This document shows, in pieces, positions 35,925 to 51,874 of a stretch of DNA of 64,000 nt. A model generated the notes under the pieces. The model was not told where the DNA came from. It saw nothing but the letters and a program-made list of their open reading frames with translations, and did no database searches. Within the stretch, counting starts at the first letter, position 1. The number at the start of each line of letters is the position of its first letter. Location of the stretch: assembly GCA_049512575.1 (NCBI GenBank), contig JBEKWY010000007.1, positions 1,570 through 65,569 on the forward strand. The letters are read 5' to 3'. This stretch comes from Candidatus Acidiferrum sp. (GTDB lineage Bacteria > Acidobacteriota > Terriglobia > Acidiferrales > UBA7541). Both the position numbers and the translations under genes were made by a program.

Positions 35925-36956
35925 CTAGGCGATACCCGCTTGCGTGAATGCGGCCAGCGCCGCTAATTTCCGCGCTGCGCTGCCCGACGATATCGCTTCG
36001 CCCGCCAGCCGCACTGCCTCTCGAAAATTCTCAGCGACGCCGGAAGCCACCAGAGCCGCGGCAGCGTTGATGACCACAATATCCCGCGGCGCGCCAGCCC
36101 GCCCCGCAAGAATGCCGCGAATCGTAACGGCATTCTCGGCCGCCGAACCGCCGCGAATTGCTTCTATCGGCGCTCGCTTCACCCCAAAATCTTCCGGCGC
36201 TAATGTGTACCGCCGCACGGTGCCGTGCCGCACGTCCGCGACGAGCGTCTCGCCTGCCAGCGAAATCTCGTCGAGGCCGCCCGCGCCATGCACCACCAAC
36301 GCCCGCTCAATTTCCAACTCCGCAAGCGTCGCGGCGACTACGTCAATCGCATCCGCTGAAAACACTCCAAGAACTTGTGCCTGCGCGCCCGCAGGATTCG
36401 TCAGCGGCCCCAGTAAATTGAAGACTGTCCGCGCCCCGATCTGCTTCCGTGCCGACACCGCATGTCGCGTAGCCGCATGAGCCGCCGGCGCAAATAGAAA
36501 TCCAATACCCAGCTCGCGAATCGCGTCGCCCATCCGCGTCAGCGGCGCATCGATCCGCACGCCCAGCGCTTCCAGCACGTCGCCCGACCCGCTTCGGGAA
36601 CTCGCCGCGCGGTTGCCATGCTTGGCCACGCGCGCACCCGTAGCCGCCGCCACAATCGCCGCCGCCGTCGATACATTGAACGCGTCGAACCCATCTCCTC
36701 CGGTCCCGCACGTATCGACCATCTGCAAAGGCCGCGTCTCGCCCTCGGCAAACACCGGCGCCGCAAACCGTCGCATCACCGATGCAAATCCTGCGAGTTC
36801 TGCGACGGCAACCGGCCGCTGGTTCAGCGCCGTCAGCAGCCGCACGATCTCCAGCGTCTCCGCGCGCCCCGAAAGCAATTCCTCCATCACGCTTTCGGCC
36901 TCAGCCCGTGTAAAAACGTTCCCTTTTTCGATGTGTTCAATCAGCCGAAGCGCCAT
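35925..36956 (-). CDS. trpD: Anthranilate phosphoribosyltransferase
   Basis: DTCGTGGDG, NVST, AKHGNRAASSRSGSGD, RTVFNLLGPLTNP, GLDEIS. Confidence 0.96.
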   Translation of the reverse strand: MALRLIEHIEKGNVFTRAEAESVMEELLSGRAETLEIVRLLTALNQRPVAVAELAGFASVMRRFAAPVFAEGETRPLQMVDTCGTGGDGFDAFNVSTAAAIVAAATGARVAKHGNRAASSRSGSGDVLEALGVRIDAPLTRMGDAIRELGIGFLFAPAAHAATRHAVSARKQIGARTVFNLLGPLTNPAGAQAQVLGVFSADAIDVVAATLAELEIERALVVHGAGGLDEISLAGETLVADVRHGTVRRYTLAPEDFGVKRAPIEAIRGGSAAENAVTIRGILAGRAGAPRDIVVINAAAALVASGVAENFREAVRLAGEAISSGSAARKLAALAAFTQAGIA

Positions 36957-37002
36957 CCATCCTCATCTGGCAAGCCAACCAGCGCCGACCCGACATTCAG
37001 TT

Positions 37003-37026
37003 GTAGGGGCGGGGCTTGCCTCGCCC
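37003..37026 (+). repeat. GTAG-type REP-like palindrome
   Basis: GTAG-GGGCGGGGC-TT-GCCTCGCCC. Confidence 0.65.
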
Positions 37027-37195
37027 GCCGGTGCGTCTCGGCACGAATTCATCCCGCAAACATCCGTCTTTTCGCGGGTTTTGAGTGGCCGTCCTTGCCC
37101 CGTCCCCAGCCTTCCGGTTACACTTTGATGTTTTGCAGGCAGACAAATTCTAACATTGGCAGACCGCTCCACGGTCACACCGAACACGGAACCCG

Positions 37196-38365
37196 ATGAA
37201 GATTCACGAATATCAGGCCAAAGCGATCCTCGCTCGCTACGGCGTCACCATTCCTCGCGGTGAAGTTGCCTTCACAAAGGAAGAGGCGCGCACCGCCGCC
37301 CAGCGCCTCCGAACGCCTGTTGTTGTCGTCAAATCGCAAATTCACGCGGGTGGCCGCGGCAAAGCGGGCGGCGTAAAACTAGCTCACTCGCCCGACGAAG
37401 CTGCCGACATCGCCAGCCACATGCTGGGCATGAACCTGGTCACCGTCCAGACCGGCCCAAGCGGCCGCATCGTCAAGCGCCTGCTCATCGAAGAAGGCCT
37501 CGACATCAAGCGCGAACTCTATCTCAGCATTCTTGTCGATCGCGCCGCAGGCAAAGTCGTTTTCATGGCCAGCACCGCGGGCGGCATGGAAATCGAGGAA
37601 GTCGCCAAGGAAAATCCCGAAGCCATCCTCCGCGAGACGGTGCAGCCCGCCGTCGGCCTCCAACCCTACCAGGCTCGCAAGCTCGCCTTCGGTCTCCGTC
37701 TCTCCGGCGAGTTCGGTCCGCAAGCCGCTCCATTCTTCCAGGCCCTCCACCGCGCCTTCGTCGACACCGACGCTTCCATGCTGGAAATTAATCCCTGCGT
37801 CGTCACCGGCGATGGCCGCCTCGTCGCCCTCGACGCCAAAATGACCTTCGACGACAACGGCTTGTTCCGCCACAAAGAACTCCGCGAACTCCGCGATCTC
37901 GACGAAGAAGATCCCCTCGAAGTCGAAGCCTCCAAGTACGGCCTCAACTACATCAAGCTCGACGGCAACGTCGCCTGCATGGTCAACGGCGCAGGCCTCG
38001 CCATGGCCACCATGGACATCATCAAGTACGCTGGCGGCTCGCCCGCCAACTTCCTCGACGTGGGCGGGGGCGCTTCCGCCGAGCAGGTCAAAAACGCCTT
38101 CCGCATCCTGATGAGCGACTCCAGCGTCCGCGCCGTCTTCATTAACATTTTCGGCGGCATCCTCCGCTGCGACGTCCTGGCTACCGGCGTAGTCGCCGCC
38201 GCAAAAGATCTCGGCATCAAGGTCCCGGTCGTCGTTCGCATGGAAGGCACCAACGTCGAAGTCGGCCAGCAAATCCTCCGCGACTCCGGCCTCAATTTCA
38301 CCATAGCCGACGGCATGAAGGACGGCGCAACAAAGGTAGTCGCTCTCGCGGGAGGTGCGCGATGA
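37196..38365 (+). CDS. sucC: Succinyl-CoA ligase beta subunit
   Basis: [56 protein letters not shown]. Confidence 0.98.
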
Positions 38366-39231
38366 GCGTTCTCGTAGACGAAAAAACGCGCCTCATCGTC
38401 CAAGGCTTCACCGGCCGCGAAGGCACCTTCCACGCCCAACAAATGATCCAGTACGGCACCAACGTGGTTGGCGGTGTCACCCCCGGCAAAGGCGGCACCG
38501 AGCATCTCGAACGCCCCGTATTCGACACCGTCACCGAAGCCGTAAAATCCACCGGTGCGAACGCTTCCGTAATTTTCGTTCCGCCTCCGTACGCCGCCGA
38601 TGCCATTCTCGAAGCCGCCGACGCGGAAATGCCTCTGATCATTTGCATCACCGAAGGCATTCCCGTTATCGACATGGTCCGCGTAGCCGCCACCATCGAC
38701 TTCAAGAAAACGCGCCTCATCGGCCCCAATTGCCCAGGCGTCATCTCTCCCGGCAAATGCAAAATCGGCATCATGCCCGGCCGTATTCACAAGCAAGGCC
38801 ACGTCGGTGTGGTCAGCCGCAGCGGCACGCTCACGTACGAAGCCGTCCACCAACTCACCGAACTCGGCATCGGCCAATCGACATGCATCGGCATCGGCGG
38901 CGACCCCATCATCGGCACCTCCTTCCTCGACGCCATCAAAATGTTTGACGGCGATCCCGACACCCACGCCATCATCCTCATCGGCGAAATCGGAGGCAAC
39001 GCCGAGGAACGCGCCGCCGAATTCATCAAGTCCAACGTGAAAAAGCCAGTCGTAGGATTCATCGCCGGCCAGACCGCCCCCCCAGGCCGCCGCATGGGCC
39101 ATGCAGGCGCGATCATCAGCGGCGGCCAGGGCACCGCCAAGGATAAATACGCAGCCATGAACGCCGCCGGCATCCACACCATAGAAACCCCGGCGGACCT
39201 GGGCTCAGCGGTAGCCGCCGCCCTGAAATAG
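38362..39231 (+). CDS. sucD: Succinyl-CoA ligase alpha subunit
   Basis: [39 protein letters not shown]. Confidence 0.98.
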
Positions 39232-39262
39232 AAGTAATGAAGTAATGAAGTAATGAAGTAAT
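39231..39262 (+). repeat. Perfect tandem octamer array (GAAGTAAT)x4
   Basis: Starts on the last base of the sucD stop codon. Confidence 0.95.
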
Positions 39263-39295
39263 GACCAAATTCAGGTTTAGTGCGATGATAGTTTT

Positions 39296-39667
39296 GTGCC
39301 CATTAAGACTTACAAAGACCTTAACGTCTTTGGCGAGTCGTACCGTCTCGCCCTCGACGTTTCTCGCGCAGCCCGAACTTTTCCCGCGCCCGAGCAGTTT
39401 GAGATGGTTCGGCAACTCCGGAGGTCCGCGCGCTCGGTCCCAGCAAATATTGTCGGGGGCTGGGCGAAGCGTTCCTCGGTCGCCGAATTCAAGCGGTATT
39501 TGCAGGTGGCCATTAGCTCTTGTGATGAATGCAAGCTTTGGCTGGAGATGAGCCGGGACGAGGGCTATCTTTCGGCCACCGAATGCGATCAGCTTTCAAA
39601 TCGCTTCAATGTAGTCGGCGCGATGCTCAAAAGTTTGTGGAAGCAGTGGCAAACCTACCCGAGGTAG
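39296..39667 (+). CDS. Four-helix-bundle protein (23S rRNA-intervening-sequence protein family)
   Basis: IKTYKDLNVF..Y.LAL.V, EQFEMVRQLRRSARSVPANI.GGW.KR, EFKRYLQVAISSCDECKLWL pattern; GTG start. Confidence 0.9.
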   Translation: MPIKTYKDLNVFGESYRLALDVSRAARTFPAPEQFEMVRQLRRSARSVPANIVGGWAKRSSVAEFKRYLQVAISSCDECKLWLEMSRDEGYLSATECDQLSNRFNVVGAMLKSLWKQWQTYPR

Positions 39668-39682
39668 GTCTTTGAATTCATC

Positions 39683-39714
39683 GTTACTTCGTTACATCTT
39701 TACGTCATTACTTC
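39683..39714 (-). repeat. Degenerate inverted octamer array x4
   Basis: GTTACTTC GTTACATC TTTACGTC ATTACTTC, the reverse complement of GAAGTAAT-like units. Confidence 0.85.
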
Positions 39715-39733
39715 GCTTTCTTAGGAGCATACC

Positions 39734-40153
39734 TTGTCTCTCGAACGCACCTTCGCCATCATCAAACCCGACGCCGTAAGCCGCAACCAGCAAGGCGAAA
39801 TCCTAGCCCGCATCCACAAAGCCGGCTTTACTATCGTCGCCATAAAATCCATGCGCCTCACCAAAGAAGAAGCCGGCGGCTTTTACGCCGTCCACAAAGC
39901 CCGCCCCTTCTTCGGCGAACTAACCGACTTCATGTCCTCCGGAAAAATTTTCGCCATGGTCCTCGAAGCCGATGGCGCCATAACAAAATGGCGCGACACC
40001 ATGGGCGCCACCGACCCCAAAAAAGCCGCCCCCGGCACCATTCGCCACGATCTCGGCACCAGCATCGGCAACAACTGCACCCACGGCTCCGACGCCCCGG
40101 ACACTGCCGCCTTCGAAATCAACTATTTCTTCCCCGGCCTAAATCTGATCTAG
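39734..40153 (+). CDS. ndk: Nucleoside diphosphate kinase
   Basis: [35 protein letters not shown]; TTG start after AGGAG. Confidence 0.97.
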
Positions 40154-40158
40154 CCACG

Positions 40159-40194
40159 ACATCGAGCCGCGACAACATCGAGCCGCGCAACATC
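40159..40194 (+). repeat. Short direct repeat, period 16 (ACATCGAGCCGCG x2 plus partial)
   Basis: Copies at 40159 and 40175, partial AACATC at 40189. Confidence 0.6.
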
Positions 40195-40213
40195 CCAAGT
40201 ATGGGCCATGATC

Positions 40214-40254
40214 GGGCGCAGCCCGTCTGCGGCAGGCAGGCATCGCTGCGCCCC
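40214..40254. repeat. REP-like palindrome with enlarged loop
   Basis: GGGCGCAGC ... GCTGCGCCCC arms enclosing CCGTCTGCGGCAGGCAGGC. Confidence 0.55.
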
Positions 40255-40335
40255 AGGCCCGCGCGATCCTAACCATGTCGACACCCGCATTTTTCTTGTT
40301 TTTTCCTTTTCCCATCAGTCGTTCCGAACTCTGTT

Positions 40336-40360
40336 TTTCTCCGTGGCTCCGTGGCTAATC
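40336..40360 (+). repeat. Dispersed 25-nt motif TTT(CTCYGTGS)2CTAATC, copy 1
   Basis: Second copy at 44190-44214. Confidence 0.65.
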
Positions 40361-40421
40361 TCTTGAAACTCGTCCCGCTCATCTTTGCGCCAGCCCCGCA
40401 TTCTTGACTACACTTCTTCGC

Positions 40422-40655
40422 ATGGATCCCATCCGCGACCTGGGCCGCCTCCTCCTGATCCTGGGCCTCACGCTCTCCGCCGCAGGCGCTCTCCTCTATT
40501 TCAACGCCCGCCTCCCCTTCCGCCTGGGCCGACTACCCGGCGACATCATCCATCGCGGCGAACACACCACCTTCTACTTTCCCATCGCCACTTCCATCCT
40601 CCTCAGCATCGCCCTCTCCCTCGTCCTCTGGCTCGTGTCACACTTCCGCCGCTGA
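40422..40655 (+). CDS. DUF2905-like small membrane protein
   Basis: LGRLPGDII..GEHTTFYFPIATSILLSIALSLV motif; TACACT 7 nt before ATG. Confidence 0.85.
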   Translation: MDPIRDLGRLLLILGLTLSAAGALLYFNARLPFRLGRLPGDIIHRGEHTTFYFPIATSILLSIALSLVLWLVSHFRR

Positions 40656-40742
40656 CATCGCGATCCCGACGAGTCCGCTGGCAGGTCCGGAGACGCCGAA
40701 TGGCGATGAATCCCCACCCATCCACTGCTGCTCATACGGTAT

Positions 40743-40767
40743 GTAGGCGCCGGGCTTCAGCCCGGCG
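40743..40767 (+). repeat. GTAG-type REP-like palindrome
   Basis: GTAGG-CGCCGGGC-TTCA-GCCCGGCG. Confidence 0.65.
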
Positions 40768-40958
40768 TTCCATCCATTCTTCACAAACCCGCATTTACTG
40801 TTCAGCACCTCCGCCCTCGCGCCCCTGATGCGCGGCGCAAGAATCGTGGTAGCATTTTTCCTGCAGCACCCCCCTTCCAAGAACGCCGTTCGCTCCCCCC
40901 CGCGAAAGGCTCCGCCAACAAGGCAGGTAAGCGCCCGATTCTCCTGGCGCAAGATGCG

Positions 40959-43900
40959 ATGATCTCTGGGATAACCCCGCTTCACACGCGCCTTCGTTCG
41001 TTCGCGTTCGCCGCCGGCATTGTCGCCATGTTCGTTTCCACAGCTGTCTTATTAGGCTGGGCCGCGCACATCCCCTGGTTAACCAATTTGTCTCCGCGCT
41101 TCATCACCATGAAGCCGGTCACTGCGCTGTGTTTTTTTCTCTCTGGCCTTTCGCTCTCGCTGCTTGCGCCTCTATCGTCCGCTTCCACTGCCCGCGGCCG
41201 CGCGGCCCAGGGCATGTCTCTTTTTGTGGTTCTCATCGGCGTGGCCACGACGATTGAATTCGCCGCGGGCGTAAATCTTCACTTCGAGAATCTCCTGTTC
41301 GGCAGTGCGCTCGATGCTACCGGCATTCCCGATCCCGGGCGCCTCTCGCTTGGCTCCGGAATCGGTTTTGCTCTACTCGGCCTCGCAATGCTCCTGATTG
41401 ATGTCGAATTCCGTGATGGTGTGAGGCCCGCTCAATATTTTTCTCTCTGCGTTGCATATCTATCCCTGCTCCATCTGTTGGGCTATCTCTACGACGTCGA
41501 CGATCTCTATCGCACCTTCCGCCAGAATTCTATGGCCCTCCACACTGCGGCGCTCTTTTTTGTCCTTAGCCTCGGAGTCCTGGCCGCCCGGCCCGACCGT
41601 GGTCTCGCCGCCGTCTTCAACGCACCGGGTATCGCAGGTCGAATGGCCCGGCGTGTACTACCCAGCGCCGCGATTCTGACCGTCACAATCGCCTGGATCC
41701 GATTCTTTTTCGAGCGCCACGGTTTCTACGGCACCGGCTTTGGCCTGGCGATTTTCGCTTCCGCGAACGTCACCATCTTTTCGGTGCTGGTGTTCTTGGC
41801 GGCTCGCTCGCTCAACGCTTCAATCGAACAACTCAACGCCACCAGTGGCGATCTCGCCGTAATTAACGAGCGCGCCAATCGCGCCAATTTTCGCCTCGCC
41901 GCCATTATCGAATCCTCCGACGACGCCATCATCAGCAAGACTCTCGAAGGCATCATCACCAGCTGGAACGCCGGCGCCGAACGCATCTTCGGATATTCCT
42001 CCGTCGAAGCTGTCGGGAAGCCCATGACCATGCTCTTGCCACCCGAGCGTTTTTCGGAAGAAACCGAGATCCTCCAGCGCATTGCCAGAGGGGAATCTGT
42101 CAATCACTTCGAATCTATCCGCGTTCGCAAGGACGGAAAAGCCGTTCTCGTCTCCGTAACCATTTCTCCGTTGCGCGACGCCACCGGCGCCATTATCGGC
42201 GCCTCCAAAATCGCCCGCGACATCAGCGAAACCCGCCGCAACGAACAATCCATCCAGGAACAGGAAGCCCGCCTCTCCGCTATCATCGGTTCGGCCATGG
42301 ACGCCATCATTACCGTGGACGCCGGTCAGCTCATCACCATGTTCAACCCTGCCGCCGAAGCCATGTTCGAGTGCAGCGCTTCGGACGTCATCGGCATCTC
42401 CCTCGAACGCTTCCTTCCCGCTCGCTTCCGCGCCGAACATGCCGAACACATCCGCACCTTTGGCGAAACCCAGGTCACCCGCCGCCGCATGGGTCGCATG
42501 GGCTCGATCTACGGCGTGCGTTCCACCGGCGAAGAGTTCCCCATCGAAGCCTCCATCTCCAAGACCGAAGTCGGTGGCGAAAAGCTCTTCACCGTCATCC
42601 TTCGCGACATCACAGAAAGCAAACGCGCCGACGAAGCCTTGCGCCAGCAGGCCGGTTTACTCGACCTCACTCCCGTTTTTGTGCGCGACCTGGACTCCAA
42701 TATCATTCTCTGGACTCGTGGCGCCGAGCGCCTCTATGGCTATTCAAAACAGGAAGCCATCGGTCGGCTATCCCATGAATTGTTGCAGACCCAGTTTCCG
42801 GCCCCGCTCCAGCAGGTCGAACATACCCTTCATGCGGAGGGCGCTTGGGAAGGCGAGCTCGGCCACCGCACCCGCGATGGCCGTCAAGTTTTTGTCCATA
42901 GCCAATGGGTCATCCACCACGACTCCCAGGGCAAGCCCGCCGGCATCCTCGAGGTAAACGCCGATCTCACCGATCTCAAACGCGCGCAAGCCCTGCAGAT
43001 GCGCTCTCAAAAATTGGAATCTCTCGGCACCCTCGCCGGCGGCGTCGCCCATGACTTCAACAACATCTTGCTCGCCATCAACGGCAACGCCAGGTTGGCC
43101 CTCGAGGATCTGGCGCCGGATCATTCCGCGCGGCAGAGCTTGTCCGAAATCGCCAGGGCCGGAGCCCGCGCAGCGGACTTGGTCCGCCGCATTCTCTCGT
43201 TCAGCCGGCCCCAGGAACAAAACCGCGAGCCTCAGCCGGTTCAGCCTGTTGTCGAGGAAGCCCTCAAGCTGGTTCGTGCTACCCTCCCGGCTTCGGTCCA
43301 GATTGAGAGCTTTTTCAGTCCCGATCTGCCCCCCGTTGCCGTGGATGCCACCCAGCTTCACCAGGTCATCGTCAATCTCGCCACCAACGCCTCTCACGCC
43401 ATCGGCGACAAACCCGGCATCATCACCGTTCGCCTTACGGATCGGAACATCACCGAAGACGATCTCGTGGCCACCCCCAACTTGCACCAGGGTCGCTACG
43501 TCTGCCTTTCCGTCGGCGACAACGGCTGTGGCATGGACCGCGCTACGCTCGACCGCGTCTTCGATCCCTTCTTCACCACCAAACCCGTCGGCCAAGGTAC
43601 CGGCCTCGGCCTCTCCGTCGTCCACGGCATCGTCGCCAGCCATGGTGGCGCCGTCACGGCCTATAGCCAGCCCGGAAAAGGAACTTCTTTTGTTCTTTAT
43701 TTTCCGGCCGCGGAAGCTCCGGCCTCCGCTCTGGCTCCTGTCGCGGCCAAGCCAATCGAGCGCGGCCGCCAGGAAAATATCCTCTACGTCGACGATGAAG
43801 AGGCTCTCGTCATGCTGGGCACCCTTTTCCTGCGACGCCTCGGATATCAGGTCACCGGTCAAGTCGACGCCAACGCCGCTCTCTACGCTTTCCGCGAGCA

Positions 43901-44425: not shown

Positions 44426-44753
44426 CGCTCGCTCTTTTGCTCTTATCCGCAAAAACGGCATATCGTAAGTCCTTTGCCTGCCACTCTTACGGGCTCCGCT
44501 TCCTGTAAGTCCTTTCCCTGCCGCTCTCTTGCCCCGAGCGCCGAGGGGTACGAAAACACCCGGAGTGGCATGCCGCCCGATGCACATTTTCCTGCCTCTT
44601 ATTCACTATCCACCACTCACTATTCACTAAGTCCTTTAGAATCCGCACTTCCGAAAAACGGCCGCGTAACTCGTTTAGAATCCGCAGATCCAAAAACATT
44701 AGACTTAAAGTCCTTTAGAATCCGCACTTACGAAAAAGGGAGGGGGGAGGGGG
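44426..44753 (+). repeat. Composite array of ~40-bp periodic units (two triplets) ending in G-rich tails
   Basis: Units start at about 44426, then 44466, 44506, 44628, 44667, 44707; shared TAAGTCCTTT-N10-CTTACG frame; TTTAGAATCCGCA identical in the last three. Confidence 0.85.
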
Positions 44754-44821
44754 TAAATTGTTAACTAAAAATCCTTCCCGTAGTGCTGCTGAGCACATCC
44801 CTAACTTCCAGCGGTCGGCTG

Positions 44822-44842
44822 CTTGCCCTGAACGTCGAAGGG
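44822..44842 (+). repeat. 21-nt mini-element, copy 2 (copy 1 at 44528-44548)
   Basis: CTTGCCCTGAACGTCGAAGGG vs CTTGCCCCGAGCGCCGAGGGG, 17/21 identical. Confidence 0.7.
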
Positions 44843-44862
44843 TCGACCTCGTCGGTTTCACC

Positions 44863-44911
44863 GGTCACCAGTCACTAGTCACCAGTCACCGCTTCTTAGT
44901 CACCAGTCACC
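44863..44911 (+). repeat. Heptamer tandem array (AGTCACY), 7 periods with one degenerate
   Basis: GGTCACC AGTCACT AGTCACC AGTCACC GCTTCTT AGTCACC AGTCACC, ending 4 nt before the xseA ATG. Confidence 0.85.
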
Positions 44912-48873: not shown

Positions 48874-48905
48874 GAAGTAAAGAAGTAAGGAAGTAGAGAC
48901 GTAAA
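48874..48905 (+). repeat. Solo octamer array x4 (GAAGTAAT family)
   Basis: GAAGTAAA GAAGTAAG GAAGTAGA GACGTAAA. Confidence 0.8.
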
Positions 48906-49224
48906 GAACGAAGCGAGCCAGGAAGCTTGAGGAAGAAAACAGCGAAAGGAAGCTGCGGAAATCGCGTGCGCCGGTGGAGTGCCTCTATAGAGGCTTGCCG
49001 CTTGCGCGTCGCCGCATGGCGTGTGTTTTGCCCGTCTTCTGCCAGCGGTATATAGTTACAAAGGATAGCTTAAAAAGGAGCCGCTCGCGTTCTGTGTCGC
49101 GAGCCGCTTCGTGTCCACGACTCTGCAGAACAGCACGAAATACGCAGGAAATACGAAACACGCAAAGAACTGTAAGCCCTTCGCAACTCGGGCAGGTAAT
49201 AGAGGGTAAAGGCAAGCCGCACGG

Positions 49225-51842: not shown

Positions 51843-51874
51843 GAAGTAAAGAAGTAATAAAGCAAAGAAGTAAT
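51843..51874 (+). repeat. Solo octamer array x4 (GAAGTAAT family)
   Basis: GAAGTAAA GAAGTAAT AAAGCAAA GAAGTAAT, 5 nt after the stop codon at 51837. Confidence 0.8.

Follow-up and report, generated by a model that had tools for sequence, protein, structure and literature searches.

To our knowledge, the four-helix-bundle (4HB) proteins of family PF05635 and the rRNA intervening sequences (IVSs) have gone without a known function for about thirty years. The IVSs of 23S rRNA, described in Coxiella burnetii and Leptospira, hold a PF05635 open reading frame (ORF; S23p) in the loop of a stem formed by terminal inverted repeats. That stem is ~28-40 bp long, which suits RNase III, and its region includes short tandem repeats (GACAGAT heptamers in Coxiella); no mobility enzyme is present, and RNase III processing of the Coxiella burnetii IVS has been demonstrated (PMC4990558). 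Here we describe the same gene-in-hairpin design in a protein-coding operon of Candidatus Acidiferrum sp., a member of the Acidobacteriota from peat (GenBank assembly GCA_049512575.1; 5.79 Mb, 311 contigs, 58.6% GC). The cassette lies in a stretch of 64,000 nucleotides, hereafter the window (contig C7, JBEKWY010000007.1, positions 1570-65569), and consists of a PF05635 gene bracketed by inverted octamer arrays between sucD and ndk. Our literature searches turned up no account of an mRNA operon with a PF05635 gene enclosed by an array hairpin; the design itself is already known from 23S rRNA. We interpret the cassette, with a probability of roughly 0.5, as an ancient IVS-type hairpin element that is transcribed with its operon and probably processed by RNase III at the stem.

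The cassette fills the space between two housekeeping genes with little to spare. All features are on the plus strand. The upstream cistron, sucD (succinyl-CoA ligase alpha subunit; 38362-39231; Pfam CoA_binding and Ligase_CoA), ends in a TAG stop codon (39229-39231) whose last base, G, is the first base of the left arm. This arm is a perfect (GAAGTAAT)x4 array of 25% GC (39231-39262), and the pairing region extends over 39225-39264. A 33-nt leader (39263-39295) with the motif GGTGCGATGAT, common to the nearest relatives, separates it from the 4HB gene (39296-39667; PF05635/TIGR02436; 123 aa, GTG start), which we identified by HMM matches and an AlphaFold2 model. The right arm (39683-39714; pairing region 39681-39720), gTTACTTC gTTACaTC tTTACgTC ATTACTTC, is a degenerate reverse complement of the left; it begins 15 nt past the ORF and ends 19 nt before the start of ndk (nucleoside diphosphate kinase; 39734-40153, TTG start at 39734; Pfam NDK, E 6e-53). 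The ndk Shine-Dalgarno sequence AGGAG (39723-39727) lies outside the stem, 8 nt past the right arm, and the same motif precedes ndk at the empty sites of relatives. A scan for terminator-like structures also found a 7-bp hairpin across the 4HB stop codon, ACCTACC CGA GGTAGGT (39653-39669), with a weak T-tail. An initial annotation of the window, made from its letters alone, had described this layout (an array on the sucD stop, a 123-aa ORF and four reverse-complement octamers), and our coordinates agree with it.

The two arrays form one long inverted repeat. A repeat search paired 39225-39264 with 39681-39720 (40 nt, 83% complementary), and an ungapped count over the central 34-nt stem gave 29 Watson-Crick pairs, 2 G-U pairs and 3 mismatches, matching the 32-bp stem with two G-U pairs and three mismatches proposed initially. 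In the minimum-free-energy RNA fold of 39221-39735 both arrays pair with each other (z -5.6; none of 100 shuffles as good). Predicted duplex energies of the arms are -39.4 kcal/mol for the sense strand and -31.4 for the antisense strand; with arm windows of 75 nt the energy is -43.3 kcal/mol, whereas shuffled right arms give -22.4 +/- 3.9. The arms stand out as AT-rich islands (25-34% GC) in a 60% GC context, while the ORF between them has 56% GC and a GC3 of 0.68 (neighbours, 0.74-0.77). Perfect octamer arrays of at least three units are rare, with only five in the whole genome. The cassette also recurs with 0 differences on independent peat and bog metagenome contigs.

The surroundings of the cassette are those of an operon resident. 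The 4HB gene is co-oriented with the sucCD-ndk operon, and a promoter scan found no sigma-70-like promoter between sucC and ndk. Within 3 kb the neighbours are sucC, sucD, ndk, a minus-strand glycosyl-transferase-3-like ORF and a PAS histidine kinase; the ORF list for 36000-43000 and Pfam searches of the neighbours revealed no transposase or integrase within that distance. No target duplication is visible at the window cassette. Rfam searches returned no family match and no rRNA in 37000-41000. The genome does encode RNase III (rnc). The lack of a promoter-like site in the operon, the co-orientation and the free ndk ribosome-binding site are consistent with a gene that is expressed from the operon transcript and processed in the manner of an IVS.

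We propose the following mechanism. The cassette, which fits exactly into the gap left by the sucD stop codon and the ndk ribosome-binding site and whose arms enclose the 4HB gene, would have no promoter of its own and would share the transcript of the operon. There the two arms would pair into a stem of ~34-40 bp with the ORF in its loop. RNase III would be the likely enzyme to process it, by analogy with the Coxiella 23S rRNA IVS, and cleavage would separate the 4HB message from those of sucD and ndk. Such separation would shield the housekeeping cistrons from the insert and determine the level at which the 4HB protein is expressed. Two processes probably keep the arms complementary: selection acting on the stem, and homogenisation at the DNA level as replication slips inside each array and switches template between arms.

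Several features distinguish the window cassette from described systems. It lies in a protein-coding sucD-ndk operon, not in a 23S rRNA helix, and its arms have a period of 8 (9 at a second site, between sucC and sucD, described below) instead of 7. The Coxiella IVS ORF is reported to be decaying and untranslated (PMC4990558), whereas the window ORF is under strong purifying selection. RNase III cleavage, known there, is a prediction here. Its arms in turn resemble the heptamer arrays of Xanthomonas and Nostoc (Rehm et al. 2015, PMC4692102), where about four short tandem units lie between co-oriented ORFs, just after stops or upstream of starts and often as convergent stem-loop pairs, a rule that the window arms follow when units of 6-9 nt are allowed. 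Those arrays are transcribed and their copy number varies between relatives, but no enclosed gene family is named there, whereas here a 4HB gene stands between the pair. G-quadruplex formation is stressed for them; the window unit GAAGTAAT, in contrast, is AT-rich and has no GG/GGG tract. REP/REPIN elements, MITEs (miniature transposable elements with inverted repeats) and integron attC cassettes are likewise intergenic hairpin repeats or inverted-repeat-bounded cassettes that lack their own enzyme. Unlike these, window-type arms are tandem arrays that vary in sequence from copy to copy, the vicinity contains no RAYT, transposase or integron integrase, and multiple identical copies are absent. 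An attC site, moreover, lies on one side only, whereas the window cassette has an arm on both sides.

By profile and by fold the protein belongs to its family. It matches PF05635 (E 1.1e-26, 93.5 bits; curated cut-off 33.8) and TIGR02436, 'four helix bundle protein' (E 3.8e-26, 91.4 bits; cut-off 24), and its AlphaFold2 model has four helices (pLDDT 88.3, pTM 0.81). The model superposes on chains of 2GSC and 2RLD with TM scores of 0.75-0.91 (by query or target length) and rmsd of 1.0-2.3 A, and 2GSC also matches in sequence (E 1.8e-10); both are uncharacterised pentamer-forming entries deposited with five chains each. Avd, the accessory protein of diversity-generating retroelements, shares the small four-helix-bundle design and has been placed in one superfamily with PF05635, and Avd-like proteins bind nucleic acid and reverse transcriptase (RT) (PMC10053308). 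In our fold search Avd (4DWL) came at rank 13 (E 0.14, TM 0.61/0.70) among generic four-helix bundles, without outscoring unrelated ones, so the link to Avd comes from the literature. The bAvd Pfam model does not match the window protein at E <= 0.001. In contrast to Avd, the window gene has no reverse transcriptase among its neighbours within 3 kb; TR/VR pairs were not searched for.

The initial annotation suspected decay of this copy, since the usual NIAEG reads NIVGG in it. This conserved N-I-A/V-E-G motif, located in helix 2, reads NIVGGW in the window copy and NI/VVEGW in all 14 intact orthologues, a single E to G change. This substitution, E62G, hits the most conserved motif of the family (NIVEGW) and is one of three private changes at otherwise invariant columns (with A52S and G82S); relatives have 0-6. 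Decay is nonetheless not supported by dN/dS, which is 0.04-0.08 against the nearest relatives, or by the private-substitution count, which is within the range of relatives, and the ORF is intact; E62G is the sole notable sign. Within the genus the sucD-ndk 4HB gene has a dN/dS of 0.04-0.09 with saturated dS, which indicates strong purifying constraint on the protein. Over a span long enough to randomise neutral sites, the arms have retained their repeat character.

The design is not confined to this locus. The only other PF05635 gene of the genome (C16:10525-10839, 124 aa) has a redoxin (TlpA-like) gene on one side and cyaY on the other, the three reading in one direction, and it too is flanked by inverted short repeats, as the initial annotation's proposal to check all 4HB genes for such flanks anticipated. 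This second cassette, including its arms, spans C16:10469-10929 (locus L001:1418-1878). Its arms are inverted heptamer arrays (AGTGRGY x4.6): AGTGGGC AGTGAGC AGTGGGT AGTGAGT upstream and reverse-complement heptamers downstream. The two genes thus share a design and have unrelated arm units, octamers in one and heptamers in the other. A further sample comprised 40 PF05635 genes, drawn from as many genomes of the order. Flanking inverted arrays were present in 23 of them at z >=4 versus shuffles, with z up to 21 and a period of 7 in almost all; ORFs are longer in the genes without arms. At 13 of 15 callable armed loci the upstream gene runs in the same direction as the 4HB gene, and Rfam placed none of 20 armed loci of the order in rRNA and found no family match there. 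Almost every cassette of the suc operon, too, has inverted arrays. The IVS-like layout suggested at the outset, a PF05635 ORF in the loop of an inverted-repeat stem, is thus typical of the family here.

Two further observations concern the family at large. Among order-wide PF05635 matches, several well-conserved 4HB genes contain a single in-frame stop (TAG ~10, TGA 4, TAA 3); the TAG excess is probably a codon-usage effect in GC-rich genomes. Separately, a multi-copy element of more than 1.9 kb (L161-L169) occurs at five places in genome G087 and four in G178, with 99.8% identity within G087 and 95% between the genomes. About 50 nt from one of its ends is a PF05635 gene of 124 aa, oriented divergently to an ORF of at least 474 aa without a Pfam match, and this 4HB gene has no flanking arrays.

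Comparing the region upstream of ndk in 100 genomes of the order (Acidoferrales) revealed two cassette sites in one operon. The sucC-sucD-ndk synteny holds in 99 of 100 genomes. A 4HB gene or pseudogene occupies the sucD-ndk junction, with 8-nt arms as in the window, in 14 of 100 loci, and the sucC-sucD junction, with 9-nt arms, likewise in 14 of 100; two genomes have both cassettes together. The proteins of the two junctions form separate sister clades (support 91/97 for sucD-ndk, 94/99 for sucC-sucD). The sucD-ndk genes of the window's genus are themselves a clade (98/98), and the wider sucD-ndk clade is found in three families of the order. Across 151 genomes no copy of either clade occurs outside the suc locus. 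A search of the same 151 genomes for a 'master copy' of the sucC-sucD-type gene elsewhere found none, all matches of at least 54% identity residing at the suc locus.

Arm units change between lineages while the arms remain paired. At sucD-ndk the unit is GAAGTAAN in the window's genus and GGAGGCAA or GGAAGCAA in other genera; GAGGTTCGAAGTTC is a further unit, and one genome has GAGGTTC-GAAGTTC. Left and right arms stay complementary despite this drift (570 of 693 stem positions Watson-Crick), and array copy number varies among relatives. The 9-nt units of the sucC-sucD site are GGAAGTAGA and CCTTTACCT. There the empty junction, in 74 of 100 loci, is a 4-nt overlap, ATGA, after a conserved GCnGGnGGTGCGCG. 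In several cassettes (noted at L025, L037, L074, L078, L083, L089, L096, L100, L114 and L115 for this junction as a whole) the 4HB start instead overlaps the sucC stop (TAATG or TGATG), replacing the ATGA overlap, and the left arm, read in frame, gives the protein an E/V/K-rich extension at its N terminus. The right arm of the sucC-sucD cassette resembles an anti-Shine-Dalgarno sequence (CCTCCTTTA) and abuts the sucD ATG, and sucD has no obvious ribosome-binding site.

The spacer between sucD and ndk also varies in ways unrelated to the cassette. Empty spacers in the genus (L021, L023, L026, L028, L037, L038, L045 and others) frequently contain a GC-rich REP-like hairpin, or two of them (gtaggcgccgggcttcagcccggc), from a repeat family distinct from the arm octamers. 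In L036 and L043 the spacer contains an unrelated small membrane-protein-like ORF without octamer arms, intact (~140 aa) in the former and broken in the latter. This spacer seems especially prone to acquiring small inserts. In L057, L061 and L068, sucD is 90-120 nt longer, and its frame appears to run into the left-arm position.

The cassette is an old, inherited and frequently lost resident of the Acidoferrales sucCD-ndk operon. At sucC-sucD, distances among 4HB proteins follow those of SucCD almost 1:1 (Mantel r 0.93, p 2e-4); at sucD-ndk the relation is weaker (r 0.29, p 0.02, rate ratio 1.5). Loss proceeds by deletion, which leaves arms-only hairpins or single arms: decay products with both arms and no gene, or one arm, occur at 13 orthologous sites. 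These remnants include both arms with the leader and the first three codons (L049), tight hairpins (L074, L076), other hairpins (L088, L113), left arms (L091, L095), a right arm only (L052), a single octamer (L029), and arms with a C-terminal stub at sucC-sucD (L029, L068). Pseudogenised cassettes whose arms are still complementary were found at L040, L048, L032 and L020. The search for empty sites that the initial annotation called for thus yielded empty, arms-only and single-arm junctions, and the gene proved to be vertically conserved at its site, but always together with its repeats. The annotation's proposal of a repeat-bounded mobile cassette stands in part: its IVS-like layout is supported, and recent mobility is not. 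Movement by a trans-acting enzyme recognising the octamers finds no support either: the sucD-ndk cassette is one clade spread over three families, arm units differ between lineages and between the two copies of the genome, a related source copy elsewhere is lacking, no transposase or integrase is nearby, and array abundances in 41 genomes of the genus do not follow the gene.

Octamer arrays are indeed common beyond the cassette. Tandem Repeats Finder (TRF) reported 48 arrays of the GAAGTAAN family in the genome, mostly solo. Only three convergent inverted pairs occur among them: the window cassette and two gene-less hairpins (C53:4147-4269 and C77:2158-2346). Across 41 genomes of the genus the octamer pattern count ranges from 0 to 120 per genome, independent of whether a 4HB gene is present; the 120 pattern hits of G151 come without any 4HB match at E <= 1e-10, and G087 has six PF05635 genes and 0 pattern hits. 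Counts that do not follow the gene argue against a 4HB protein that maintains or spreads the arrays, and we reject genome-wide maintenance by the gene. A reversed-pattern control was invalid, as reversing the unit merely rotates it, and an array-orientation census from longest-ORF calls was not used because such calls are unreliable in this GC-rich genome (sucD itself was miscalled).

The window contains two of the gene-less arrays on the plus strand, one of GAAGTAAA type with 4.4 units (48874-48908; C7:50443-50477) and a second of the octamer family with 3.9 units (51843-51873; C7:53412-53442). Others of the same or a related family are at C6:58750, C19:25616, C129:9001 and C201:3793 (CTTCTTCG x11), and some gene-less octamer arrays start directly after stop codons. 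At 44600-44890 of the window (C7:46169-46459), heptamer arrays (TATTCAC-type, TCACCAG x4.7) flank a repeat block of ~40-nt units containing TTTAGAATCCGCA, with similar units at C11:69390-69480.

A DNA-level explanation would account for the scattered occurrence of the cassette. The arms could be the hairpin or cruciform ends of a mobile or excisable DNA element that direct insertion at stop-codon/ribosome-binding-site junctions, with precise excision driven by slippage, and with patchiness reflecting repeated insertion and excision or allelic exchange by homologous recombination. Inverted repeats of Tn5 and Tn10 promote precise excision by replication slippage. Each cassette is present in only 14 of 100 genomes and requires 13-14 parsimony changes. 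All empty sucC-sucD junctions have the ancestral GCnGGnGGTGCGCG-ATGA, which random deletions could not recreate; precise excision, exchange of the allele through homologous recombination or insertion on several occasions would be needed. At L089, a sucC-sucD cassette, junction sequence appears on both sides, like a target duplication. Stem mismatches lack an asymmetry of G-U over A-C, relatives have other small inserts in the sucD-ndk spacer, and related 4HB genes are on the multi-copy element of G087 and G178. We nevertheless regard this explanation, as a whole, as unlikely. The 4HB proteins of each junction form a monophyletic clade of their own that does not occur elsewhere in 151 genomes, protein distances at sucC-sucD track SucCD almost 1:1, the genome has just two copies and their arms are unrelated, there is no transposase or integrase within 3 kb, and the window copy shows no target duplication. 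Flank-identity profiles of filled versus empty sister loci also gave no clear recombination tract, with species only 80-90% identical.

Other explanations dispense with the stem as the functional unit. The arrays could be primarily binding sites for an oligomeric 4HB protein that recognises 7-9-nt units in RNA or single-stranded DNA, for example (GAAGUAAU)4 or (GAAGTAAT)4, and that regulates its own message or acts on solo arrays, with the hairpin secondary. This would explain why the arms are tandem arrays, typically of 3-5 units, and not arbitrary inverted repeats; it is in keeping with the five chains of 2GSC and 2RLD, the nucleic-acid and RT binding of Avd-like proteins (PMC10053308) and the 48 same-family arrays of the genome. 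Yet orthologous proteins have different arm units, the arms are complementary in the pseudogenised L040 and persist after gene deletion in L049 and L074, and array abundance in 41 genomes is unrelated to the gene, from the 120 hits of G151 to none in G087, all of which makes it improbable that binding is the primary role. The arrays might, finally, be a neutral by-product: slippage-prone intergenic repeats are common in this lineage, the gene could stand between two of them by chance, and the pairing would then be without function. The many solo arrays, the variable copy number between relatives and the range of 0-120 hits within one genus point that way. We consider chance very unlikely all the same, given that only three convergent inverted pairs occur among 48 arrays, one of them bracketing the gene, that both 4HB genes of the genome and 23 of 40 others in the order have inverted arms with z up to 21, and that complementarity persists despite saturated synonymous sites.

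Our preferred interpretation, the operon-transcribed and RNase III-processed IVS-type cassette, has evidence weighing against it as well. The distribution is extremely patchy: a single origin would entail at least 41-46 losses per cassette against the 13-14 parsimony changes, which sits uneasily with simple vertical descent. The 'host' tree used in these comparisons was built from SucC and SucD, the flanking genes of the cassette, and is for that reason a locus tree, not a species tree. Among the non-Watson-Crick positions of 26 stems, G-U pairs (39) do not exceed A-C (32; p = 0.48), so there is no strand-specific signature of selection on sense RNA, and purely DNA-level upkeep of complementarity is possible. 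Close relatives have uncompensated mismatches in the outermost unit pair. No RNA-seq runs containing the stretch were found, and transcription through the cassette, folding and cleavage are predictions from the DNA. A cross-locus RNAduplex matrix that compared each left arm with its own and other loci's right arms was set aside for poor discrimination, because arms share a purine-/pyrimidine-rich composition and some were misplaced by truncated ORFs. RNA-level processing of the cassette is plausible on these analyses, and the complementarity of its arms may owe much to DNA-level homogenisation.

The occurrence of the gene-in-hairpin design in a conserved metabolic operon, across an order and under purifying selection, means that the design is not specific to rRNA and that the 4HB protein is probably functional, as far as its pattern of substitutions can tell. 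The Acidoferrales sucCD-ndk operon offers a test bed, with two sister cassettes at two junctions and all stages from intact to single arm; filled, arms-only and empty versions of one junction exist for comparison. It also provides one documented origin for gene-less intergenic repeat hairpins, while most octamer arrays in the genus are independent of the gene. A broader idea, which we hold tentatively and rate well short of our interpretation of the window cassette, is that hairpin-armed PF05635 cassettes are a general 'intervening sequence of operons', insulating themselves in RNA through an RNase III-cleavable stem of tandem repeats and precisely removable from DNA by hairpin-stimulated slippage. 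If this is true, such cassettes would have left behind, in decaying, many of the bacterial 7-9-nt intergenic arrays and hairpins that lack an explanation, and the classical 23S rRNA IVS would be one habitat of a much wider class.

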